A stretch of 26,895 nt of DNA from a virus (IMGVR_UViG_648276657_000007:1-26895); one strand, 5' to 3'. Shown: positions 2,434 through 24,172, counted from the stretch's first letter. Program-made: numbers and translations. The notes: generated by a model from the sequence alone, not told the origin.

Positions 2434-2871
2434 ATGACAAAAGAGAAATTATATAAATTACTATATGATATTTGGAAAAAATCCAGTCGTGCTTATTTTT
2501 CTGGCATAGGCGTTATTATATGTAATAACCCTGATAGCCTTCCCATCACAAGTCTTCGGAATATAGACCCCATACAGAATGATTCCACATTAGAATTATT
2601 ATCAAGAATTTCCAATAAAAATAGCGAATACCATGATGGCTTTCACATCTTAGATGAAGCAGGAAATGTTACTTATACCGCACAATATTTCTCACCACCA
2701 ATCATAGAGAACATCAGTTTTGACAGTTCAAGACTCGTCGGTGGACGTTTTGTTGCTGCCCTTTATGGCTCTTGCATTGACGAGATTAAACTTACTGGGA
2801 TTGTAGGCGAAAGAGGTCGTCTTTCTATATTTGAGGCTGGTAAAGAAGTTTATTACGAGGAGTTGCAATGA
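2434..2871 (+). CDS. Minimal DAC-fold (DisA_N / diadenylate-cyclase-like) protein with non-canonical catalytic motifs; candidate signal generator or sensor
   Basis: 145 aa; SD AGGAAG 8 nt upstream of the ATG. By-eye alignment to CdaA/DisA DAC motifs: GIGVII ~ GALIVI, STLELLSRI ~ SSELLINI, HDGFHIL ~ HDGAVIM, AQYFSPP ~ AACYLPLS, LVGGRFVAALYGS ~ LGTRHRAAVGIS, IVGERGRLSIF ~ IVSEETGGVSV. Stop overlaps the next ATG (ATGA at 2868-2871). Confidence 0.55.
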   Translation: MTKEKLYKLLYDIWKKSSRAYFSGIGVIICNNPDSLPITSLRNIDPIQNDSTLELLSRISNKNSEYHDGFHILDEAGNVTYTAQYFSPPIIENISFDSSRLVGGRFVAALYGSCIDEIKLTGIVGERGRLSIFEAGKEVYYEELQ

Positions 2872-3461
2872 TAAACCTTCTCCCAATATGGAAAATAATC
2901 TCAAGAATCTCCGTTATCTATGCGACTGTCTGCGGTCTGATTTTATTGGGCATATATGATGAAAACACAACTTTCATGACAGTCCTATCAGTTGCATCTG
3001 GAGGTTTGTTTATTCTTAATACTATTGTGATATCAATTTTTTTCTTTGGGTGGCGAAAGTTATGGCAATGGTTCCCTAAACTAAATAACCTACTCTTCCC
3101 TGATTTGAACGGAACCTGGGATATGGTTATTCATTGGGAATGGGAAGATAAAAAAGGCACATCCCACGCACAAGCAACTATAAAGCAGGATTTTCTTAAA
3201 ATTGGAATGGATGTCGAAGCTGACGACTCCGATTCTCAGACATTGGTGGCTAAGCCTAAAAAGGATACCGAAACGGGGCGACCAGAACTTTACTACGTTT
3301 TTTTAACAACCCCCAAGCATAAGGCAGGTTTTGGTCCACAAGATCCTTACATGGGCACAGCTATTCTCAAGCTAAATCTTAATGATAAAGACGTGTTAAA
3401 TGGGAACTACTTTACAAGCCGTAAAACAGTAGGTCATTACGAGCTGACACGCATTAACTAA
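2868..3461 (+). CDS. Two-transmembrane-helix membrane protein with about 135-aa C-terminal soluble domain; candidate membrane-disrupting effector (Cap15 / S-2TMbeta-like architecture)
   Basis: 197 aa; hydrophobic helices at roughly aa 12-30 (ISRISVIYATVCGLILLGIY) and 37-60 (MTVLSVASGGLFILNTIVISIFFFGW), followed by WRKLWQW and a hydrophilic domain; translationally coupled to the DAC-like gene. Confidence 0.6.
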   Translation: MINLLPIWKIISRISVIYATVCGLILLGIYDENTTFMTVLSVASGGLFILNTIVISIFFFGWRKLWQWFPKLNNLLFPDLNGTWDMVIHWEWEDKKGTSHAQATIKQDFLKIGMDVEADDSDSQTLVAKPKKDTETGRPELYYVFLTTPKHKAGFGPQDPYMGTAILKLNLNDKDVLNGNYFTSRKTVGHYELTRIN

Positions 3462-14929: not shown

Positions 14930-15102
14930 TGTCAGGAGTCCTGAATAGTGATTAGAGGAGTCACATGTCGGCATCAGTTTCCCGACGATGCGCATCCTCC
15001 GCCATCAGTCCCGGATGGCTTATCACTGACACAACAGCACCTTAGCGAATCGCGGGGCGCGACTCAGTAGCCTTGCCGTGTATTCATCACGGCGAGGTAT
15101 TC

Positions 15103-16875
15103 ATGACCATCACCACAGACACCACTCTTTTACACGACCCGCGTCGGCAGGCGGCGCTGCTGTACTGGCAGGGGTTTTCCGTGCCGCAGATTGCCGCCAT
15201 GTTGCAGATGAAACGCCCGACGGTGCAGAGCTGGAAACAGCGCGACGGCTGGGACAGCGTTGCCCCCATCAGCCGTGTCGAAATGAGCCTGGAAGCGCGG
15301 CTGACCCAGCTCATCATCAAACCGCAGAAAACCGGCGGTGACTTCAAGGAAATTGACCTGCTGGGACGCCAGATTGAACGACTGGCGCGGGTCAACCGCT
15401 ACAGTCAGACCGGCAACGAGGCAGACCTTAATCCGAACGTCGCTAACCGCAACAAAGGCGGGCGTCGCAAACCGAAAAAGAATTTTTTCAGTGACGAAGC
15501 CATCGAAAAGCTGGAGCAGATTTTCTTTGAGCAGTCTTTCGACTATCAGTTGCACTGGTATCGCGCCGGGCTTGAGCACCGCATCCGCGATATACTGAAA
15601 TCCCGCCAGATTGGCGCAACGTTTTATTTTTCCCGCGAGGCGCTGCTGCGCGCCCTGAAAACCGGCCATAACCAGATTTTTCTGTCGGCCAGTAAAACGC
15701 AGGCGTATGTGTTCCGCGAATACATCATCGCCTTTGCCCGTCTGGTTGACGTTGACCTGACCGGTGACCCGATTGTCCTGGGCAATAACGGCGCAAAACT
15801 AATTTTTCTCGGCACCAACTCCAACACCGCACAGAGCCATAACGGCGACCTGTACGTCGACGAGATTTTCTGGATCCCGAATTTTCAGGTACTGCGTAAG
15901 GTGGCATCAGGTATGGCCTCACAGAGTCACCTGCGTTCGACCTATTTCTCCACCCCGTCCACGCTGGCGCACGACGCCTACCCGTTCTGGTCAGGTGAAC
16001 TGTTCAACCGGGGACGCGCCAGCGCCGCCGAACGCGTGGAAATCGACGTCAGTCATAACGCCCTTGCCGGTGGGCTTCTCTGTGCGGACGGCCAGTGGCG
16101 GCAGATTGTCACCATTGAGGACGCCCTGAAAGGTGGCTGCACGCTGTTCGACATTGAGCAGCTCAAACGTGAAAACAGCGCCGACGATTTTAAAAACCTG
16201 TTCATGTGTGAATTTGTTGACGACAAGGCGTCGGTGTTCCCGTTCGAGGAGCTGCAACGCTGCATGGTCGACACGCTGGAAGAATGGGAAGACTATGCGC
16301 CGTTTGCCGCCAATCCGTTCGGCTCCCGCCCGGTATGGATTGGTTACGACCCGTCACACCGTGGCGACAGCGCCGGATGCGTGGTGCTGGCACCGCCGGT
16401 GGTGGCCGGTGGCAAATTCAGAATACTTGAGCGTCACCAGTGGAAAGGCATGGACTTTGCCACCCAGGCGGAATCCATCCGCAAACTCACCGAAAAATAT
16501 AACGTTGAATACATCGGGATTGATGCCACCGGCCTCGGTGTCGGCGTGTTCCAGCTCGTGCGCTCGTTCTATCCCGCCGCGCGCGATATCCGCTACACGC
16601 CGGAAATGAAAACCGCAATGGTGCTCAAGGCAAAAGACGTTATCCGCCGTGGCTGTCTGGAATATGACGTCAGCGCCACCGACATCACCAGCTCGTTCAT
16701 GGCTATCCGCAAGACCATGACCAGCAGCGGACGCAGCGCCACCTATGAGGCCAGCCGCAGCGAGGAAGCCAGCCACGCCGACCTCGCCTGGGCAACCATG
16801 CACGCCCTGTTAAATGAGCCACTCACCGCCGGTATCAGCACTCCGCTGACATCCACCATTCTGGAGTTTTACTGA
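15103..16875 (+). CDS. P: Terminase large (ATPase) subunit (P2 gpP-like)
   Basis: Start at MTITTDTTLLHDP with SD GAGG 5 nt upstream (590 aa); divergent from O; stop overlaps the Q start (TGATG). Confidence 0.9.
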   Translation: MTITTDTTLLHDPRRQAALLYWQGFSVPQIAAMLQMKRPTVQSWKQRDGWDSVAPISRVEMSLEARLTQLIIKPQKTGGDFKEIDLLGRQIERLARVNRYSQTGNEADLNPNVANRNKGGRRKPKKNFFSDEAIEKLEQIFFEQSFDYQLHWYRAGLEHRIRDILKSRQIGATFYFSREALLRALKTGHNQIFLSASKTQAYVFREYIIAFARLVDVDLTGDPIVLGNNGAKLIFLGTNSNTAQSHNGDLYVDEIFWIPNFQVLRKVASGMASQSHLRSTYFSTPSTLAHDAYPFWSGELFNRGRASAAERVEIDVSHNALAGGLLCADGQWRQIVTIEDALKGGCTLFDIEQLKRENSADDFKNLFMCEFVDDKASVFPFEELQRCMVDTLEEWEDYAPFAANPFGSRPVWIGYDPSHRGDSAGCVVLAPPVVAGGKFRILERHQWKGMDFATQAESIRKLTEKYNVEYIGIDATGLGVGVFQLVRSFYPAARDIRYTPEMKTAMVLKAKDVIRRGCLEYDVSATDITSSFMAIRKTMTSSGRSATYEASRSEEASHADLAWATMHALLNEPLTAGISTPLTSTILEFY

Positions 16876-17909
16876 TGAGCAAGAAAAAAGGGAAAACACC
16901 GCGACCTGCGGCAAAAACAATCACCGCCAGCGCCCCGAAAATGGAAGCATTCACCTTTGGCGAGCCGGTGCCGGTACTCGACCGCCGTGACATTCTGGAT
17001 TACGTCGAGTGCATCAGTAACGGCAGATGGTATGAGCCGCCGGTCAGCTTTACCGGTCTGGCAAAAAGCCTGCGTGCTGCCGTGCATCACAGCTCACCGA
17101 TTTACGTCAAACGTAATATTCTGGCTTCAACGTTTATCCCGCACCCGTGGCTTTCCCAGCAGGATTTCAGCCGTTTTGTGCTGGATTTTCTGGTGTTCGG
17201 TAATGCGTTTCTGGAAAAGCGTTACAGCACCACCGGTAAGGTCATCAGACTGGAAACCTCACCGGCAAAATATACCCGCCGTGGCGTGGAGGAGGATGTT
17301 TACTGGTGGGTGCCGTCCTTCAACGAGCCGACAGCCTTCACGCCCGGCTCCGTGTTTCACCTGCTGGAGCCGGATATTAATCAGGAGTTGTACGGCCTGC
17401 CGGAATATCTCAGCGCCCTTAATTCTGCCTGGCTGAATGAGTCGGCCACGCTGTTCCGCCGAAAGTATTACGAAAATGGCGCTCATGCCGGATACATCAT
17501 GTACGTCACCGATGCCGTGCAGGATCGCAACGATATCGAAATGCTTCGCGAAAACATGGTCAAGTCGAAAGGCCGCAACAACTTTAAAAACCTGTTTCTC
17601 TATGCCCCACAGGGGAAAGCCGACGGCATTAAAATTATCCCCCTCAGTGAAGTGGCGACGAAGGACGATTTTTTTAATATCAAAAAAGCCAGCGCCGCTG
17701 ACCTGCTGGACGCGCACCGCATCCCCTTTCAGTTGATGGGTGGCAAGCCGGAGAACGTCGGGTCGCTGGGTGATATTGAGAAAGTGGCAAAGGTCTTTGT
17801 CCGCAATGAGCTTATCCCGTTACAGGACAGGATCCGCGAGATAAACGGCTGGCTCGGTCAGGAGGTCATCCGCTTTAAAAACTACTCACTGGACACTGAC
17901 AACGACTGA
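16875..17909 (+). CDS. Q: Portal vertex protein (P2 gpQ-like)
   Basis: 344 aa; followed by an intrinsic terminator and the cos site. Confidence 0.9.
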   Translation: MSKKKGKTPRPAAKTITASAPKMEAFTFGEPVPVLDRRDILDYVECISNGRWYEPPVSFTGLAKSLRAAVHHSSPIYVKRNILASTFIPHPWLSQQDFSRFVLDFLVFGNAFLEKRYSTTGKVIRLETSPAKYTRRGVEEDVYWWVPSFNEPTAFTPGSVFHLLEPDINQELYGLPEYLSALNSAWLNESATLFRRKYYENGAHAGYIMYVTDAVQDRNDIEMLRENMVKSKGRNNFKNLFLYAPQGKADGIKIIPLSEVATKDDFFNIKKASAADLLDAHRIPFQLMGGKPENVGSLGDIEKVAKVFVRNELIPLQDRIREINGWLGQEVIRFKNYSLDTDND

Positions 17910-18074: not shown

Positions 18075-18093
18075 GTGCTTTCCCCGCCTCGCC
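18075..18093. other. cos: cos cohesive-end sequence (P2/186 type)
   Basis: GTGCTTTCCCCGCCTCGCC is the reverse complement of the 19-nt P2 cohesive end GGCGAGGCGGGGAAAGCAC as I recall it; it sits in the expected place next to Q. Confidence 0.65.
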
Positions 18094-18240
18094 CGCCCGC
18101 TTCATGCAGGGCTTTAAATGCAGTGCAGCAGTAATGGTCAGAATGCGCCAGCACTGATGTCAGATACCAGAACTGGCATTTAAAAATGAATGCAAATAAA
18201 TGCACCAAACTAATTACTTACTGACAAAAAATAAGTAAAA

Positions 18241-19125
18241 TCAGGCGCAAGTTGGCATTGAGACCCCTTTCAGGGTATTAGGAATAATTATTTCAGGAGA
18301 AAAAATCATCACTTCCTCTCCAGATTTTTTGAGATGCGCTGTATATTGCAATGAATACTCAACTTGCGGAAATTCATTATAAATATCTTTAATTTCCTTA
18401 GCATTATCATAAGAAACAAGCCAATTTGGGAAATTAATTTCTGTGAGTTTCTTCATAACCAATACATGATCATCATGCTCATAAAAATTCCTGTAAAGCC
18501 CTTGCCCTTTAATATAGTAAGGAGGATCCAAATACAAAAGAATTTTATTTTTATCCACCTTTCCCATATTATCCATAAAATTCAAGGCATCAAGAAAATC
18601 CAAAGCATCCAGATTAGTTACTACTATTCTTTGATTATAATTTGCTATCTTCTCAATTCTTGAAATTAAATCCGCCCTGTTAAAGCGAACATCCATTTTC
18701 CATTTTCCATTTTGTGATTTCCCACCTATAACCCCCGCCTTGAGAATACCTGAACGATTTGTTCTATTTAAGAAAAACGCAGCAAAGCCAACCTCAAGCT
18801 TAGTAAACTCAGAAGGATTCGAAATAACATAGCGATGAAAAGACCATTCATCCATATCTATCTTTGCTCGGCTAATAAGTCGGCAAAGCTCATCAGTATC
18901 ACTAACAACAGATGACCAAAAAGAATAAACAGCAAAATCTGCATCATTTATATAGATTTTACGGACATACTCTTCCAATAATAATTCTAAAGCCACCCCT
19001 GCACCACCAGCGTAAGGTTCTGCATATGCTCCATCATTCAACGAGTTTTTTTCAATAACATCTTTTAAAAAGTAAGATAACTTACCTTTCCCGCCGGGGT
19101 ATCTTAATGGAGTATAAAATTTCAT
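18241..19125 (-). CDS. Dam-family (D12 class) N6-adenine DNA methyltransferase
   Basis: 294 aa; N-terminal RYPGGKGKL, AdoMet motif EPYAGGAGV, catalytic LYLDPPYY; AT-rich cargo island between cos and gene A. Confidence 0.85.
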   Translation of the reverse strand: MKFYTPLRYPGGKGKLSYFLKDVIEKNSLNDGAYAEPYAGGAGVALELLLEEYVRKIYINDADFAVYSFWSSVVSDTDELCRLISRAKIDMDEWSFHRYVISNPSEFTKLEVGFAAFFLNRTNRSGILKAGVIGGKSQNGKWKMDVRFNRADLISRIEKIANYNQRIVVTNLDALDFLDALNFMDNMGKVDKNKILLYLDPPYYIKGQGLYRNFYEHDDHVLVMKKLTEINFPNWLVSYDNAKEIKDIYNEFPQVEYSLQYTAHLKKSGEEVMIFSPEIIIPNTLKGVSMPTCA

Positions 19126-19162
19126 AAATCCCTCTCATTCCTGATTTTGTAGTTTATCAGTT

Positions 19163-19182
19163 TCTGGACATCCATGTCCAGA
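19163..19182. promoter_or_regulatory. Inverted repeat TCTGGACAT-cc-ATGTCCAGA between the ParB-like gene stop and the methyltransferase start; candidate operator or attenuator
   Basis: 9-bp perfect arms with a 2-bp spacer, about 40 bp upstream of the methyltransferase ATG (19125). Confidence 0.4.
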
Positions 19183-19194
19183 TGTAGACAAATC

Positions 19195-20739
19195 TCACTC
19201 ACTCCAAATAAGGCTTAATAACAACTCAAAGTTATCCCACTCAGTGTTGACAGCCTCTTTTGAGGGAATTAAGTGTGGGTTATGTACATACTGCTGCAAT
19301 GAACCATCATGTTTAGTTATTTGGCTCGAGAAAGTTATTACAGCCGTACATTGACTCCCCGTCATCTTTTTATTTTCCCGAAGGAAATTAGCACACATTT
19401 TAACCTTATCATGAAGCCCTGGAGTTCTATGCGGTTCCTTAAATTGTAACTTGTTTTCTTCAACAAAAGTGCTTACAGAGAGATCTATAAATATTCTCAA
19501 CAATATTGAGATAGCATTAGGGGTATTATCAAATGTCAGATGCGACTTAAGCTCATTAAATATTCTAGAGCATTTCTTATGCCCTCTAAAATTAAATTTC
19601 ACATAAGATGGCACCAACACATTACGATCTACTTTAGGAGGAGTTTTTCCCTTGCTTTTATTCTGTTCCGTACCCGAAACTTTAGATTTACTCTCTTCTG
19701 TGCCTACATGTCTAGAATAATCATCTTCCTGTTTATCCATACCTGTATTCTTTAAGGCATCACCTTCCTGTTTATCCATACCTGTATTCTTTAAGGCATC
19801 ACCTTCTGAAAGACCTACTTTCTTTACACTCACAGAGGCATCATTTTTGTCAATAGAATCATCTTTTTTCTCTGTAAGAAAAGATTTAGGCTCCAGTAAA
19901 CTCCACGGCTTATCTAAAAGAGATTCTGAAGGTTTTATTTTTTGTTCAATAATAAATGTAACCCTGTCATCTTGGCTACGAATCCTATTAACAGTAAAAC
20001 AAGCCTTACCTTTATCATCCTCTTCAATCATTACATCTAAAATATTTTTTAATTGTGCACAAAAACGTTCATAAGGCTGATATGAGTATAGAACTCCATT
20101 AATGCTTTTTAAATTAAAATAATCCCTCACCTTTAAATCACCAAAAAGACGCGTGATGTTTGTGATTTTTAAAAGTCTTTTTTTAGCAATTATCTCTTTA
20201 TATAAATCAGTATTGAACTCTATAAATGTAAGTATTTGATTACCAAATGACTGCTTACCCATCCTAGCCAGATGCCGTGCTTTTTCTGTTGCAGTCCATT
20301 CAACTCTTCCAACTCCAGCATTTTGACCAGTATGCTTTAAATTAACCCAATGCTCATATTCATCATCGTCAAAAAGAACGCAGTTATCTATAACATTAAT
20401 ATCTTTAAGCTGAGTAATCTTAAGTTTTTCAAAAGCTTTCCGTGCTTTTTCTGTTGGTGCAAGTCTAGGAGAGTGTAAAAGTTTAAGGGCTGTAACTCGA
20501 CGATTACCTTCAGCAACGACGAAAAAGCCAGATTCCTCTTCACTAGGATAAACTAATATGTTTTCAGACGGATCTAAACCTTTCGAAGCAATATCTTTAG
20601 CCAAGCGATAAATGCGGTCGTACTGCAAGTCAAGCATCTTGGCAATAGCATCACGCTGATTTTCTGCTGACGTCGGGAAACGAGGGTTATCAACATCCAA
20701 AAGTAACTTATTGATATTCATTGATTTTAGTTGATTCAT
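19195..20739 (-). CDS. ParB-N-domain (ParB/Srx nuclease-fold) protein with uncharacterised central and C-terminal regions; candidate partner of the adjacent methyltransferase
   Basis: Start chosen at MNQLKSMNINK, with SD GAGGAT about 8 nt upstream (514 aa); the six-frame ORF runs to 20808 (537 aa) but its first 16 codons cover a palindrome. ParB-like motifs LLLDVDNPRFP and FFVVAEGNRRVTALKLL. Contains an in-frame 2 x 13-aa duplication. Confidence 0.65.
   Translation of the reverse strand: MNQLKSMNINKLLLDVDNPRFPTSAENQRDAIAKMLDLQYDRIYRLAKDIASKGLDPSENILVYPSEEESGFFVVAEGNRRVTALKLLHSPRLAPTEKARKAFEKLKITQLKDINVIDNCVLFDDDEYEHWVNLKHTGQNAGVGRVEWTATEKARHLARMGKQSFGNQILTFIEFNTDLYKEIIAKKRLLKITNITRLFGDLKVRDYFNLKSINGVLYSYQPYERFCAQLKNILDVMIEEDDKGKACFTVNRIRSQDDRVTFIIEQKIKPSESLLDKPWSLLEPKSFLTEKKDDSIDKNDASVSVKKVGLSEGDALKNTGMDKQEGDALKNTGMDKQEDDYSRHVGTEESKSKVSGTEQNKSKGKTPPKVDRNVLVPSYVKFNFRGHKKCSRIFNELKSHLTFDNTPNAISILLRIFIDLSVSTFVEENKLQFKEPHRTPGLHDKVKMCANFLRENKKMTGSQCTAVITFSSQITKHDGSLQQYVHNPHLIPSKEAVNTEWDNFELLLSLIWSE
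19728..19805. repeat. Perfect 2 x 39-bp tandem duplication inside the ParB-like CDS
   Basis: cctgtttatccatacctgtattctttaaggcatcacctt occurs twice back to back; encodes EGDALKNTGMDKQ twice on the minus strand. Confidence 0.9.
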
Positions 20740-20760
20740 CAACATATCCTCTGTTGAATC

Positions 20761-20793
20761 TTTATGATAAAAATTAATTATTTTTATCATAAA
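20761..20793. promoter_or_regulatory. AT-rich palindrome TTTATGATAAAAAT-taatt-ATTTTTATCATAAA just upstream of the ParB-like gene; candidate operator
   Basis: 14-bp perfect inverted arms separated by 5 bp, 22-54 bp upstream of the preferred start codon. Confidence 0.45.
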
Positions 20794-21095
20794 TGATAGC
20801 GTAAACATAGTCTTATGAACGACATCAGCCCTGAAGCTTCAAAACTATCATTTACGTTTGCGAGGCATCATCTATCACATTGATTTATAATAAGTATCTT
20901 TATCTTCACTGCATTGCTCTCAAAAAATCACATAGATGGAAATTCCCCGTTGACACACTCCCAAGTGATGCAGATACATTTCAAGTGCTTCATACACATG
21001 ATAACGGCTATCCCCCTAAATTCTGTGCGTTTCTTTTCCCTCCAGCACAAGGTTGAAATATCTTGCGTGCAGCTTTACTTTGTGAATCTTTGTCA

Positions 21096-23381
21096 TTATG
21101 TCCGCGCCATTACTGTTGAGAATCCCGGCCACTCATCAGCGACCGGATACGTGAATTTTTTCCCGTCATAATTTACGGTCGCGCCACGCGCCAGCGCCTC
21201 AAGCTCCCATCGCTGCGGCCTGATACCGTTCTGAGCAAGGTCAACGCGGATACGGGTAATTTGCATTCTTTCCGACCGGGTCAGTCTGGCCGATGGTGCA
21301 ATTTCATGTGGTTTTAACGGGCTTCCGTTTCTCTGCTGACGATTTGGTGTTCTCAGCCCGTATTTTAATGCGCCCCTGAGCGCCCTCACGACCTCCGGGT
21401 CATTCCATTCGATAACACCGTCATCAACCAGATTAAGCACTGCTGCGGCGTGCTCAGAAGGCGTGGGAGCCGGTAACGAAGTATTACCGCCGGTGATCTT
21501 TCCACAGTTATTGACAGGACTCCGAGGCGCGGCGATGCCGCTTTTTAACGTCAAAGGCTCAACGACCGGCACTTTCGGCACAATGCGCCAGTCCGTCGTT
21601 CTGGTGATATGAATATGACGCGCGCCGAGATGCGGCGCGTAAATGCCGACCACTCTCTCGACTTCTTCCTCGTACTCGTTAACGTCATCCGACGGGCTAC
21701 GGGCAACCCTGACAGTCTGACAATCGCGCGGGACATTTGCCCCACCCTGCGCGCTGATATACAACGCAAAATCACCACTGTCTGCGGCAGCGCGAGCAGC
21801 CTCGACGCGTTCGTCAAACTCATCAGCAATACTGACGCCGCGAGGCAATTTGCGTAGTTCACGGTAAGCCCCCATTGTCGGCAGTCCAACCGTTTTAAAT
21901 TGCGGGATGCGCCACGTTGACGCCCATGCGGTAACAGCCGCGGCAGTATCTTTAAGCGGCTTACCGGTATCGTTATCGAGCTGACCATCCAGTGCATAGC
22001 CGTCGATATTTTTTGAAATGTATTTCGCGATATATCCCGCAGCACCGCCCCGGTTAAGGTGCTTTGCCTGAAAACGGTTTCGCGCGGCTCCTCTTTCGTC
22101 ACCATCCTCTTTGAGCGCATAGCGCCGCATGATTTCGATAATCTGGTTACGCTGGCGTGGATTACAAAAAAGCATCATATGCCAGTGCGGCGTTCCGTCG
22201 TGGTGTGGCTCGACGACACGCAAACCGTAGACCTGTAAATCATTATCCTTGAATGCCGTGCGCATCAGGCTCCAGATGCGGCAGAGATAACGCTGCGCAT
22301 CCTTTGGATTAAATGCCTCATCGTTCCAGCCGTGATTAAGCTGGACGGTTTTACTTTCGCCTTTTCCGACCTGACGTGTCGGGTGATACTTTGACGGCGC
22401 GGTCAGCGTGATAAACATCCCCACATCACCCTCTGCGGCGGCGTAACGCTCAATACCGGCGATGGTGTTCATCAGCTCCATCCGGCGAATTTCTGGATTA
22501 GAAATACTGCCCATCACCTTACTGATAAGGTCGATGCGCTCGCCGGTTTCCTTGTTTTCAAGGTCACACGATTTAAGAAATTCCAGATTTGCCTGGCGGC
22601 GCGCACGCACATCACGAATGGCATGTTTACTGGCATAAGGAGAACGGTCTTTATTGACCTCCCCGACAGCAATCAGTAACGCCTCATGCCAGCGCATACG
22701 CTGGCCTTTAAGCTGATGAGTCCACCATTCATCGTTAAACAGACGGGCAATGGCAGAATATGCCTGCCTCGTGGTCATCTGCCCTTTACGGTATTTTTTC
22801 CAGTAGAGCGGGGAAATATTGAAAGCACGTGCAGCGCCAGCAACATGACCATACAGGTGAGCCTGCGCCTCATCCGTAAACAGCGATTCTTTCTCGCCAT
22901 GCGCATCCACCCAGGCATCGCAGAGTTCCTCATACATTATGAAAAGCTGCGATGAGATACGGGCGGCAAACTTTTTCAGCTCCTTGTCATTCATTCCAGG
23001 CAGGCGCGCATAGTGGTCACGCTCTGCCAGAAACAGCAACGACGCGTCGGTGTTCATTTCATGGCGCTGATTAACGCGCTCAATGCGCGGCCATAAACGA
23101 CGCTGAAAAGTGGATGTGAGGAAATAAAACCCGTGCACCGGGCTTTTATTGCGCCGGATGTAGTCATAGCGTGAAGTAAACAGCGAGCGCAAAAAGTAAG
23201 GCAGGCGATTAATCGTGGATAAAACACCTTGCACCTGACGCATCTCGTCACGTGTAAGGGGTCTTTCGCGCCCGACGGCCTCGCGTGGCGCGTTCCATGC
23301 ATAAGCACCGGTAAACGTCTCACCGGTGCCTGCGGCAAATGCTGACGGAGGGACAAAACGCCCGGAGGCTTTAACGGCCAT
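21096..23381 (-). CDS. A: Rolling-circle replication initiator (P2 gpA-like)
   Basis: Start at MAVKASGRFVPPSAFAAGTGE (761 aa); the six-frame ORF has a 14-codon extension; contains the HWHMM metal-binding motif of rolling-circle initiators. Confidence 0.9.
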   Translation of the reverse strand: MAVKASGRFVPPSAFAAGTGETFTGAYAWNAPREAVGRERPLTRDEMRQVQGVLSTINRLPYFLRSLFTSRYDYIRRNKSPVHGFYFLTSTFQRRLWPRIERVNQRHEMNTDASLLFLAERDHYARLPGMNDKELKKFAARISSQLFIMYEELCDAWVDAHGEKESLFTDEAQAHLYGHVAGAARAFNISPLYWKKYRKGQMTTRQAYSAIARLFNDEWWTHQLKGQRMRWHEALLIAVGEVNKDRSPYASKHAIRDVRARRQANLEFLKSCDLENKETGERIDLISKVMGSISNPEIRRMELMNTIAGIERYAAAEGDVGMFITLTAPSKYHPTRQVGKGESKTVQLNHGWNDEAFNPKDAQRYLCRIWSLMRTAFKDNDLQVYGLRVVEPHHDGTPHWHMMLFCNPRQRNQIIEIMRRYALKEDGDERGAARNRFQAKHLNRGGAAGYIAKYISKNIDGYALDGQLDNDTGKPLKDTAAAVTAWASTWRIPQFKTVGLPTMGAYRELRKLPRGVSIADEFDERVEAARAAADSGDFALYISAQGGANVPRDCQTVRVARSPSDDVNEYEEEVERVVGIYAPHLGARHIHITRTTDWRIVPKVPVVEPLTLKSGIAAPRSPVNNCGKITGGNTSLPAPTPSEHAAAVLNLVDDGVIEWNDPEVVRALRGALKYGLRTPNRQQRNGSPLKPHEIAPSARLTRSERMQITRIRVDLAQNGIRPQRWELEALARGATVNYDGKKFTYPVADEWPGFSTVMART

Positions 23382-23646
23382 ATGAGCCAAAAGCCTCTGA
23401 ACAACGCTTGCTGAGTTGCTCAACCTGCGCGTTTAAATCAGCAAAAGACTTTGCGCTTCCGGTCAGAATATCGTGATGCATCAGGCCGGAAACGAGCTGG
23501 CTTAATTTCGGGTAATAACCAACCACCGCCAGCCATTCCTGACCGGCGTTTTTACCGCTTTCAGCTCTCTTTTTCTCGTGGAGAATAAACTGAAAGCTGT
23601 CACTGGTAACGACATAACGTTCGCCAATTTCAATACGAATACTCAT
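23371..23646 (-). CDS. Hypothetical early-region protein (P2 orf83 position)
   Basis: 91-aa ORF overlapping the A start by 11 nt. Confidence 0.6.
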   Translation of the reverse strand: MSIRIEIGERYVVTSDSFQFILHEKKRAESGKNAGQEWLAVVGYYPKLSQLVSGLMHHDILTGSAKSFADLNAQVEQLSKRCSEAFGSYGR

Positions 23647-23867
23647 GCCGTTCTCCGGTAATGTTTGTTTTTTGCTTCAAAGACTGACTGACAGGAAACA
23701 CAACGCGTGGCTGACGGATAAGCCGCACGACGGGCAGCAGGTATTGGCGCGTCACACTCTTCGCAAACCAGCGCAGAAGCACCGCAATGTTTTACCCTTG
23801 CCGCGTTAATCTGGCGCTCCAGTAATTCAGCCTGTTGTTCCTGAATAAAATCTACGTTGTCCGGCAT
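23643..23867 (-). CDS. TraR/DksA-family C4 zinc-finger protein
   Basis: 74 aa; CGASALVCEECDAPIP...RCVSCQ four-cysteine motif; 4-nt overlap with the downstream ORF. Confidence 0.75.
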   Translation of the reverse strand: MPDNVDFIQEQQAELLERQINAARVKHCGASALVCEECDAPIPAARRAAYPSATRCVSCQSVFEAKNKHYRRTA

Positions 23868-23869
23868 TA

Positions 23870-24172
23870 TCAGCTCCTTTTATCGTTCAGTTTCTTAAAT
23901 TCATCAGCGCAATAGCTGGCGATTTCTGTCATTAATTTCGTCAGTTCATCCACGGAGGAGATTTGCTTGTGAAAAACAGCGCGTTTAACAAGTAAATTAA
24001 CCACATCAGACAGGAGGTTTAATTCATTCTGATAAATCGCGATAACAGATTCAGTTATGTCGCGTTTTTCTTTATCAAGACAAAGTTGAATAAGAGACAA
24101 ATCACCATTATCCATAACGGCGATTTTTAAGGCGTTATTCAGTAATACAACTGAATGAGAACAGGACATCAA
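23870..24172 (-). CDS. Hypothetical early-region protein (P2 orf81 position)
   Basis: 100-aa ORF in the tightly packed early operon. Confidence 0.55.

Follow-up and report, generated by a model that had tools for sequence, protein, structure and literature searches.

PD-lambda-5 is an anti-phage system that was found by functional selection in a P2-like prophage of Escherichia coli ECOR7 (contig QOWS01000001, proteins RCQ13837.1 and RCQ13838.1); its discoverers labelled it 'ParB/HEPN, methyltransferase' and read it as 'RM + Abi', that is, restriction-modification (RM) combined with abortive infection (Abi) (Vassallo et al. 2022, Nat Microbiol; PMC9519451). Cloned with its native promoter, the ECOR7 locus affected plaquing of nine of ten phages, the T-even phages most strongly and lambda-vir and T7 among the others, and it was scored 'Escape plaques: No' in Table S1, high-frequency escape plaques being the phenotype by which the authors flagged RM systems (PMC9519451). 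Here, we analysed a viral stretch of 26,895 nucleotides (nt) (IMGVR_UViG_648276657_000007:1-26895; from here on the window, meaning the whole stretch, with positions counted from its first letter), in which an AT-rich insert next to the cos site carries two genes, which we refer to as genes A and B and their products as proteins A and B. We are virtually certain that these two genes are a copy of PD-lambda-5 and that they form a functional-looking two-gene anti-phage cassette.

The assignment is carried by full-length matches of both proteins. Specifically, protein A matches the PADLOC model PD-Lambda-5_A (PDLC03998) with E=1.6e-167 over residues 24-536 of a maximal open reading frame (ORF) of 537 amino acids (aa) and positions 1-465 of the 466 in the profile; it also matches 24 more PD-Lambda-5_A sub-models and, with E=2.9e-213, phrog_9592. 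The methyltransferase matches PADLOC PD-Lambda-5_B (PDLC04018) over its full length with E=7.9e-122 and is identical to RCQ13838.1, the ECOR7 protein that was tested, at 291 of 294 residues (99%). Both genes lie on the minus strand, adjacent and co-directional, with 69 nt between the stop codon of A and the start codon of B. The ECOR7 locus lies in the same P2 hotspot, with portal/cos on one side and the replication endonuclease gene on the other, and has these two genes in the same order; between the two loci, B is 99% identical, and A is about 99% identical outside a duplication of 13 aa in its linker. A reading of this DNA made from the sequence alone, without database searches (the sequence-only reading), had described two co-oriented genes, had proposed that they are an unconventional RM or defence pair and had named a defence-system search as a check; the orientation was seen correctly, and the PADLOC matches of both proteins together with the defence provided by the near-identical ECOR7 locus bear the proposal out. 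Judged at the level of sequence, every feature that defines membership in PD-lambda-5 is present, and the identity and defence role of this system are already known.

The allele in the window differs from the ECOR7 type by two copies of a 39-nt linker unit (514 vs 501 aa) and a few substitutions. The two units stand in tandem at 19720..19797, are 97% identical and in frame, and duplicate the 13 residues GDALKNTGMDKQE in the linker of protein A. Relative to the common 501-aa E. coli form, to which it is 96% identical, protein A has a 13-aa insertion and five substitutions. Only one unit is present in the 20 best-matching complete E. coli genomes, where the span is 38-39 bp shorter and the match falls into two blast pieces, and the 514-aa allele is recorded from only two contigs.

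The window is a P2-like prophage, and the insert is the occupant of the known P2 defence hotspot #1. On the left, the hotspot is bordered by a P2-type cos at 18075..18093 on the minus strand, whose 19-nt cohesive end GGCGAGGCGGGGAAAGCAC is an exact match where none is expected by chance; in blastn against P2 (AF063097), window positions 18075-18122 correspond to P2 33593-33546, annotated as cosR in the P2 record. On the right, window positions 21015-23998 align at 96.5% identity with P2 replication gene A and the first 82-84 nt of orf91. The AT-rich cargo insert of ~2.9 kb between these alignments (18123..21014) is delimited by blastn and stands out by a drop in GC content, which in a composition scan of the window is 0.33-0.37 over 18501-21000 and 0.52-0.59 in the flanks. 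It takes the place of P2 30400-33545, a segment comprising tin, old and the 3' part of orf91. The earlier placement of an AT-rich insert between cos and replication gene A, at the tin/old position, is therefore supported alike by GC content, the cos site and the P2 alignment. What is left of orf91 (DUF3850) is a truncated 5' remnant at 21015..21096 on the minus strand, which aligns to the start of P2 orf91 and forms the right border of the insert; the same truncation by cargo insertion is present in all E. coli copies examined, and in strain KH_005 the equivalent stretch is annotated in RefSeq as a frameshifted, incomplete DUF3850 pseudogene. Beyond the remnant lies the P2-type replication gene A (21096-23381, minus strand), while the terminase gene (15073-16875) and the portal gene (16875-17909) lie on the other side of cos from the insert and run toward the cos site. 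At an identity of at least 99%, the insert occurs in 22 of 5426 complete E. coli genomes, with the same P2 flanking genes every time. P2 old and tin occupy the same locus and have the same role, being lysogenic-conversion genes that exclude other phages, but their proteins are unrelated to those of PD-lambda-5, and they are transcribed in the opposite direction, whereas transcription of the PD-lambda-5 genes here runs from the replication gene A side toward cos. As a separate observation, W-phi gp98 (AY135739, 31504-32451) and a protein of L-413C (AY251033, 30058-30513) are relatives in the same cos-proximal hotspot; they share 26-30% identity with the ParB-like N-terminal 160-308 residues of protein A, and their C-terminal parts are apparently different.

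The pair is also found well beyond P2. In a scan of one genome per GTDB species, a relative of A was encoded in at least 410 of at least 600 candidate stretches, of which the best 80 loci were kept. Full-length A is present in 73 of these 80, and B follows it co-directionally, -4 to +92 nt downstream, in 69 of the 73, is convergent in three and is missing in one. The hosts are Gammaproteobacteria, Betaproteobacteria, Bacteroidota, Actinomycetota, Bacillota, Acidobacteriota, Planctomycetota and archaea. In Enterobacter and Serratia the cassette sits in the same P2 hotspot; elsewhere it lies in an integrase-flanked island in Salmonella (locus L083), in a lambdoid prophage between DUF1367 and replication genes in Providencia (L086), in a Mu-like prophage between mor and lysis genes in Shewanella (L091) and next to housekeeping genes in Acinetobacter. 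The A-B linkage and these varied mobile contexts argue for the pair being a single mobile functional unit, and it behaves as a cassette that moves among several prophage 'moron' sites.

This distribution bears on an explanation in which the module benefits the phage itself, with the methyltransferase providing anti-restriction for P2 DNA, as the sequence-only reading had allowed in suggesting that the phage methylates its own DNA, and the ParB-like protein acting in partition or gene regulation. Orphan Dam-like methyltransferases are frequent in phages, fusions of ParB-fold and methyltransferase domains are enriched in prophages and have a suggested anti-defence role (PMC12704722), the N-terminal half of A is similar to KorB, a repressor, and there is a palindrome before each gene. 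However, the near-identical locus, alone on a plasmid in K-12, lowers plaquing of nine of ten unrelated phages, the cassette occupies the lysogenic-conversion hotspot of P2 and the pair is also conserved in non-phage chromosomal contexts. Moreover, the island contains no ParA-like ORF and no parS-like array, its only repeats being two regulatory inverted repeats and the coding duplication; protein A has no C-terminal dimerisation domain and ends in a HEPN fold; and the upstream palindrome is not conserved in orthologues. We consider this explanation highly improbable: the published phenotype and the lack of ParA, parS and a dimerisation domain leave essentially no room for a role in anti-restriction or partition.

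Gene A is the ParB-like/HEPN-like gene of the pair (19195..20739, minus strand), with an ORF that extends at most to 20808. Because a GAGGA ribosome-binding site (RBS; 20747..20751, minus strand, read from the sequence) lies 7 nt upstream of the ATG of M24 at 20739 and homologues as well as the PADLOC and PHROG profiles begin there, because the exact 514-aa sequence is in NCBI as WP_001072650.1, and because the 23-codon extension would include a promoter-like element that is conserved as well as a predicted promoter, translation almost certainly begins at M24, giving a protein of 514 aa. Around the RBS, the stretch TTCAACAGAGGAT(A/G)TGTTG(A/G)TGAATCAA is conserved in the orthologous loci of Enterobacter and Salmonella. 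Pfam gave no match for protein A or for 34 family members scanned singly, NCBIfam gave only a sub-threshold match of protein A to RepB (14.4 bits vs a cut-off of 201.5) and a sequence search of the PDB with protein A gave only a spurious match (E=0.48). Because these searches came back empty, the domain calls in A rest on structure prediction and fold comparison, for which an AlphaFold2 model was built from 34 diverse homologues and compared with known folds using Foldseek.

Residues 1-290 of A are well predicted and match ParB, KorB and Noc in Foldseek with a probability of about 1, KorB and PadC being the best fold matches of the N-terminal half. Residues 1-127 (20359..20739, minus strand) form a domain with the ParB/Srx fold and both of its characteristic motifs, an NPR resembling the NPxxxR-like box I and an E77-G-N-R-R81 resembling box II. 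The latter lies within VAEGNRRVTALKLL, which corresponds to residues 75-88 of the 514-aa protein and to nt 20476-20517. The residues N18-P-R20 and E77-G-N-R-R81 are invariant, EGNRR being present in all 79 homologues from genomic loci, and by sequence comparison they resemble the box I and box II GxRR nucleotide-binding motifs of the ParB-CTPase lineage. Residues 128-290 (19870..20358, minus strand) make up a helical middle domain with the invariant pattern W131...H136-x-G138...G142...W148, which aligns with the post-CTPase DNA-binding region of KorB, ParB and Noc in Foldseek alignments of up to ~289 columns; on the strength of the model, we infer that this domain may bind DNA. It is followed by a charged low-complexity linker (residues 291-367; 19639..19869, minus strand) that is predicted to be disordered, with a predicted local distance difference test score (pLDDT) below 50, and that varies in length and sequence in all homologues.

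The C-terminal domain of A (residues 368-514; 19198..19638, minus strand) is predicted to adopt the four-helix up-and-down HEPN fold. Modelled alone, it reached a pLDDT of 91.5 and a predicted template-modelling score (pTM) of 0.87, and the model gives firm, high-confidence support to the HEPN fold; the original HHpred evidence was far weaker, with probabilities of 35.6% for DUF4145 and 8% for HEPN_RiboL-PSP. Invariant residues are R415 (19495-19497) on helix 2 and, ~70 residues further on, Y484, H486 (19282-19284) and N487. In about a dozen loci, including those of Streptomyces, the tblastn match covered residues 5-263 only, and we considered that the C-terminal domain had been swapped, which would have favoured a modular design of sensor and effector; these loci encode the same HEPN-like domain in diverged form instead, and the conserved Arg and the motif phi-x-H-[NST] are kept even in the most divergent Streptomyces-type members. 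Replacement of the HEPN-like domain by another effector was not found among the members examined. Likewise, a classical endonuclease domain (PD-(D/E)xK, HNH, GIY-YIG or PLD) was not found in A by Pfam, NCBIfam or fold searches. Of the large protein, the sequence-only reading had given a length of 514-537 aa and a ParB/Srx N-terminus, had cautioned that a ParB-fold protein is not a classical restriction endonuclease and had left the remainder unrecognised, to be checked with AlphaFold and Foldseek. The length is now placed at 514 aa from M24 within the 537-aa maximal ORF, the N-terminal fold and the caution agree with our results, and the remainder is accounted for by the helical middle domain, the disordered linker and the HEPN-fold C-terminus.

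Gene B (18241..19125, minus strand) encodes an alpha-class (D12) DNA N6-adenine methyltransferase of 294 aa. It matches PF02086 with E=4.4e-16 (59.8 bits vs a cut-off of 22) and the adenine methyltransferase PDB 7m6b with E=2.3e-12; the N-terminal S-adenosylmethionine-binding motif of the FxGxG type, PYAGGAG, comprises residues 37-43 (nt 18997-19017), and the catalytic motif DPPY comprises residues 200-203 (nt 18517-18528) and is kept in 78 of 78 homologues. Thus, the call of a Dam-family N6-adenine methyltransferase with DPPY holds, and its D12 class is clear; it is not a Dam equivalog with GATC specificity, its score against TIGR00571 being 47.1 bits vs a cut-off of 114.85. Mrr restricts methylated DNA. 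The ECOR7 locus could be cloned only in an MG1655 derivative from which the mrr-containing region had been deleted (PMC9519451). Because cloning needed a host lacking mrr and because of the specificity of Mrr for methylated DNA, this implies that the methyltransferase of the ECOR7 locus is active in vivo, and it also argues for a methylation pattern of B that is not native to K-12.

The sequence-only reading had also pointed to palindromic candidate operators before each gene. Both palindromes are there, and together they go beyond chance. Upstream of gene A, in its promoter/5' leader and shortly before the RBS, a perfect inverted repeat whose arms are 14 nt long, TTTATGATAAAAAT-N5-ATTTTTATCATAAA, spans 20761..20793; between A and B, an inverted repeat with 9-nt arms, TCTGGACAT-GG-ATGTCCAGA, spans 19163..19182. 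None of 300 first-order Markov resamples of the island had a repeat as long as 14 nt, and only 1.7% of them had two with 9 nt or more. A promoter scan places a -35/-10 candidate, TTTACG-17-AATAAT, at 20805-20777. We considered the 14-nt repeat as a conserved operator and rejected it: its dyad symmetry is absent from the orthologous loci of Enterobacter and Salmonella, where, at 75% protein identity, conservation is confined to the RBS region and the left arm TTATGATAAAAAT, similar to an extended -10. On this evidence, we would not regard the upstream palindrome as an operator. The intergenic repeat is partly kept in Enterobacter, and strong stem-loops unrelated to it occur at the same position in the loci of Pantoea, Clostridium, Serratia and Providencia. 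As RNA, the A-B spacer has a predicted fold of -17.9 kcal/mol (z=-2.7). The hairpin was rejected as an intrinsic terminator, as it has no T-run and is missed by a terminator scan.

The intergenic repeat overlaps the -35 element of a predicted internal sigma-70 promoter of B (19151..19180, minus strand), which consists of TGGACA (19180-19175), an 18-nt spacer and TGaTAAACT; the promoter scan places its -10 hexamer at 19156-19151 and classes it as an extended -10. The arrangement TGGACA, 18-nt spacer and extended -10 is that of the enterobacterial loci. More broadly, the pattern T[GT]GNCN, 16-18 nt, TANNNT is present in 12 of 26 homologous A-B spacers vs 0.5 expected from shuffles. Among the hexamers of these spacers, enrichment is highest for the palindrome TGGCCA, found 4-22 nt past the stop codon of A in ten phylogenetically distant loci vs 0.93 expected (L002, L005, L010, L011, L018, L035, L038, L046, L075 and L077); in seven of the ten, from distant phyla, it lies exactly 17 nt before TANNNT, and an eighth locus is arranged likewise with TGGCCG. 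Based on these sequence patterns, gene B very probably has its own internal promoter. Methyltransferases of RM systems usually have their own promoter. The unusual, conserved, palindromic -35 in addition suggests that B may be under further control, by a protein of the system or by methylation.

In published methylomes, TGGCCA is modified by alpha-class 'orphan' enzymes annotated as adenine methylases, namely H0N27_12600 of A. baumannii A118 (experimental; called m4C) and E1N14_009720 of S. algae; a TGGCCA enzyme is predicted in Chania, and an m6A TGGCCA motif is listed for P. luminescens TT01 with no assigned enzyme. That TGGCCA may be the target of B is a hypothesis that we considered and did not adopt; the PD-lambda-5 loci of A. 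baumannii and Shewanella have no TGGCCA in their spacers. A Methylomonas TGGCCA enzyme was treated as uninformative on the family of B, going by its annotation as a cytosine methyltransferase. We note that the TGGCCA-modifying 'orphans' might be PD-lambda-5 methyltransferases with an unrecognised partner.

Our working hypothesis for the mechanism, to which we give about an even chance of being right, is that methylation marks self, the ParB half senses unmarked DNA and the HEPN domain cuts RNA. Specifically, B, expressed from its own internal promoter, would set the self mark by N6-methylating the adenines of a specific motif in the DNA of host and prophage. Protein A would be both sensor and effector, its ParB/KorB-like N-terminal half engaging DNA that lacks the mark, probably through a switch dependent on nucleoside triphosphate (NTP). 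Through the long flexible linker, the sensor would license the HEPN-fold domain, in which H486 and R415 would cut RNA. Phage development would come to a halt, perhaps with loss of the infected cell, a logic of 'RM + Abi in one protein'. In this scheme, we infer the signal that is sensed, the domain that executes the response as a nuclease and the outcome for the cell. The ParB-CTPase fold binds CTP, ATP or GTP in many contexts other than partition (PMC12704722), and Anantharaman et al. 2013 catalogued HEPN-ParB fusions and HEPN operons that also encode a ParB nuclease and a DNA methylase as RM-linked (PMC3710099). The scheme agrees with the genomic predictions of that catalogue and with the 'RM + Abi' of the discoverers, and it fits the absence of epigenetic escape plaques. 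The conservation of the Arg and the His in every member examined argues for their importance.

Several points weigh against this scheme. The HEPN domain of A has no Rx4-6H motif, in that no Arg precedes H486 by 4-6 residues (LQQYVHN) in any member and the conserved Arg lies on another helix than the His, and the HEPN-like domain could lack catalytic activity and serve, for instance, in dimerisation or RNA binding. Some HEPN families have a 'conserved H but lacks R' (PMC3710099), and because such families exist A may still act as an RNase despite the missing motif. ParB-fold domains are also classed as DNases of RM systems, so that DNA could be the substrate (PMC3710099). The strongest protection is against T-even phages with modified DNA, which is not obvious for a simple sensor of unmethylated sites. 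Finally, beyond the 2022 description, a search for later mechanistic work on PD-lambda-5 returned census-type mentions only within the library of papers searched.

Some of the same points favour an unusual DNA-cutting RM system, in which the ParB-fold domain of A would be a DNase acting on an unmethylated target, B its cognate methyltransferase and the HEPN-like domain an accessory for dimerisation, regulation or back-up toxicity. The two genes are ordered and tightly linked as in a type II RM pair, protection is broad over unrelated phages, the separate promoters and the palindromes near both genes recall the regulation of RM systems, and the absence of Rx4-6H from the HEPN-like domain would be accommodated. 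However, the ECOR7 clone gave no epigenetic escape plaques, and T-even phages are the best targets. Their DNA is heavily modified with glucosylated hydroxymethylcytosine (glucosyl-hmC) and resists most sequence-specific restriction endonucleases. Furthermore, what is invariant in the ParB domain is NPR and GNRR, the nucleotide-binding motifs of the CTP-switch lineage; its fold comes closest to those of KorB and PadC; and the HEPN-like Arg and His are conserved in every member examined, which argues for their importance. We regard this explanation, the main rival, as somewhat unlikely.

The T-even preference would be better explained, and the lack of escape plaques accommodated, if the pair is an addiction or Abi module of the toxin-antitoxin (TA) kind, in which A would be a toxin triggered by a cue of infection (lost methylation capacity, a phage protein or modified DNA as for GmrSD/BrxU), while B would silence A on the host chromosome and stabilise the prophage, methylation not discriminating between phage and host. 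A response to hypermodified DNA is reminiscent of those type IV enzymes whose sensor is a ParB-like (DUF262) domain; HEPN toxins are typical effectors of TA and Abi systems, and the cassette is carried by mobile elements, on which addiction modules are common. Yet lambda-vir and T7, whose cytosines are unmodified, are among the phages that the system acts on, and self-marking is the simpler explanation for a methyltransferase partner at 72 of 73 loci, which makes a TA-like module distinctly unlikely in our view.

Returning to the scheme of a methylation mark, a DNA sensor and an RNA-cutting effector, a more specific version is a tentative possibility: PD-lambda-5 may be an RM system with no sequence-specific DNase, in which a ParB-type, nucleotide-driven clamp would load only on DNA free of the cognate adenine methylation and activate a tethered, non-canonical HEPN RNase (His486/Arg415). 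As a corollary, the -35 element of the B promoter (TGGCCA in ten distant loci; TGGACA within the dyad here) would contain a target or an operator of the system itself, providing methylation-dependent feedback on B. If true, epigenetic reading of self and non-self DNA would be coupled to the destruction of RNA.

Compared with described systems, PD-lambda-5 shares with type II RM the adjacent genes for a methyltransferase and a putative nuclease, separate promoters, regulatory palindromes, carriage on mobile elements and a broad, sequence-independent range. Unlike type II RM, it has no PD-(D/E)xK, HNH, GIY-YIG or PLD endonuclease, the partner being a ParB-fold/HEPN-fold protein, and no controller protein; the tested homologue gave no escape plaques, and T-even phages are its best targets. 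The RM-linked HEPN families have the same three components, a ParB-like domain, HEPN and a DNA methylase, and an RNase 'second line' was predicted for them (PMC3710099); the likeness is one of components, those families being genomic predictions that mostly keep Rx4-6H, which protein A lacks. GmrSD, BrxU and SspE (DUF262 + DUF1524 HNH) and PD-T4-2 (DUF262 + HEPN) follow a shared defence plan of an N-terminal, nucleotide-binding sensor of the ParB superfamily, a C-terminal nuclease and a link to DNA modification. In PD-lambda-5, however, the sensor is nearer to KorB, PadC and ParB than to DUF262 and the effector is HEPN-like, not HNH; protein A has neither a DUF262 (DGQQR-type) N-terminal domain nor a DUF1524 HNH C-terminal domain. 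The target of GmrSD and BrxU is modified DNA, and no methyltransferase accompanies them, whereas in PD-lambda-5 the methyltransferase is an obligatory partner. The CTP clamps ParB, KorB and Noc are the best structural matches of residues 1-290 of A, with the box I-like NPR and box II-like GxRR conserved; in contrast to them, A comes with no ParA, parS array or dimerisation domain and has a HEPN-like C-terminus and a methyltransferase, and NTP binding by A is a prediction.

The window also contains a second AT-rich island (2434-3461, plus strand), beside the tail-fibre genes in a hotspot of the P2 Z/fun type. Its 145-aa ORF (2434-2871) has a sub-threshold match to diadenylate cyclase (DAC/DisA_N; E=3.6e-5, 23.8 bits vs a cut-off of 27) and overlaps by 4 nt a gene for a 197-aa Cap15-like effector with two transmembrane segments (2TM), which matches PF18153 with E=8e-20 and the PADLOC 'Effector 2TM' of cyclic-oligonucleotide-based anti-phage signalling systems (CBASS) with E=3e-31. 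A CBASS-type effector with a DAC-like protein in place of a CD-NTase cyclase looks unusual. In the same island as the Cap15-like gene and abutting the edge of the window, a gene at 1-1902 on the minus strand encodes a 633-aa fusion of an ABC/AAA_15-AAA_21 ATPase with DUF4435 (OLD/Toprim-like); it has weak PADLOC matches to NsnB, AriAB, PtuA and GajA and is probably an extra defence gene.

The annotation of the cassette is in itself routine, both the defence system and the prophage hotspot being known already. What is new here is the firm support for the HEPN fold, its non-canonical catalytic signature, the affinity of the N-terminal half to KorB, the conserved TGGCCA/TGGACA internal promoter and the linker duplication. 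PD-lambda-5 was among the broadest-acting systems of the 2022 E. coli screen, and the pair is present in hundreds of species, from bacteria to archaea. We suggest that the features described here are testable handles on how a methylation mark may be read without a classical restriction enzyme.

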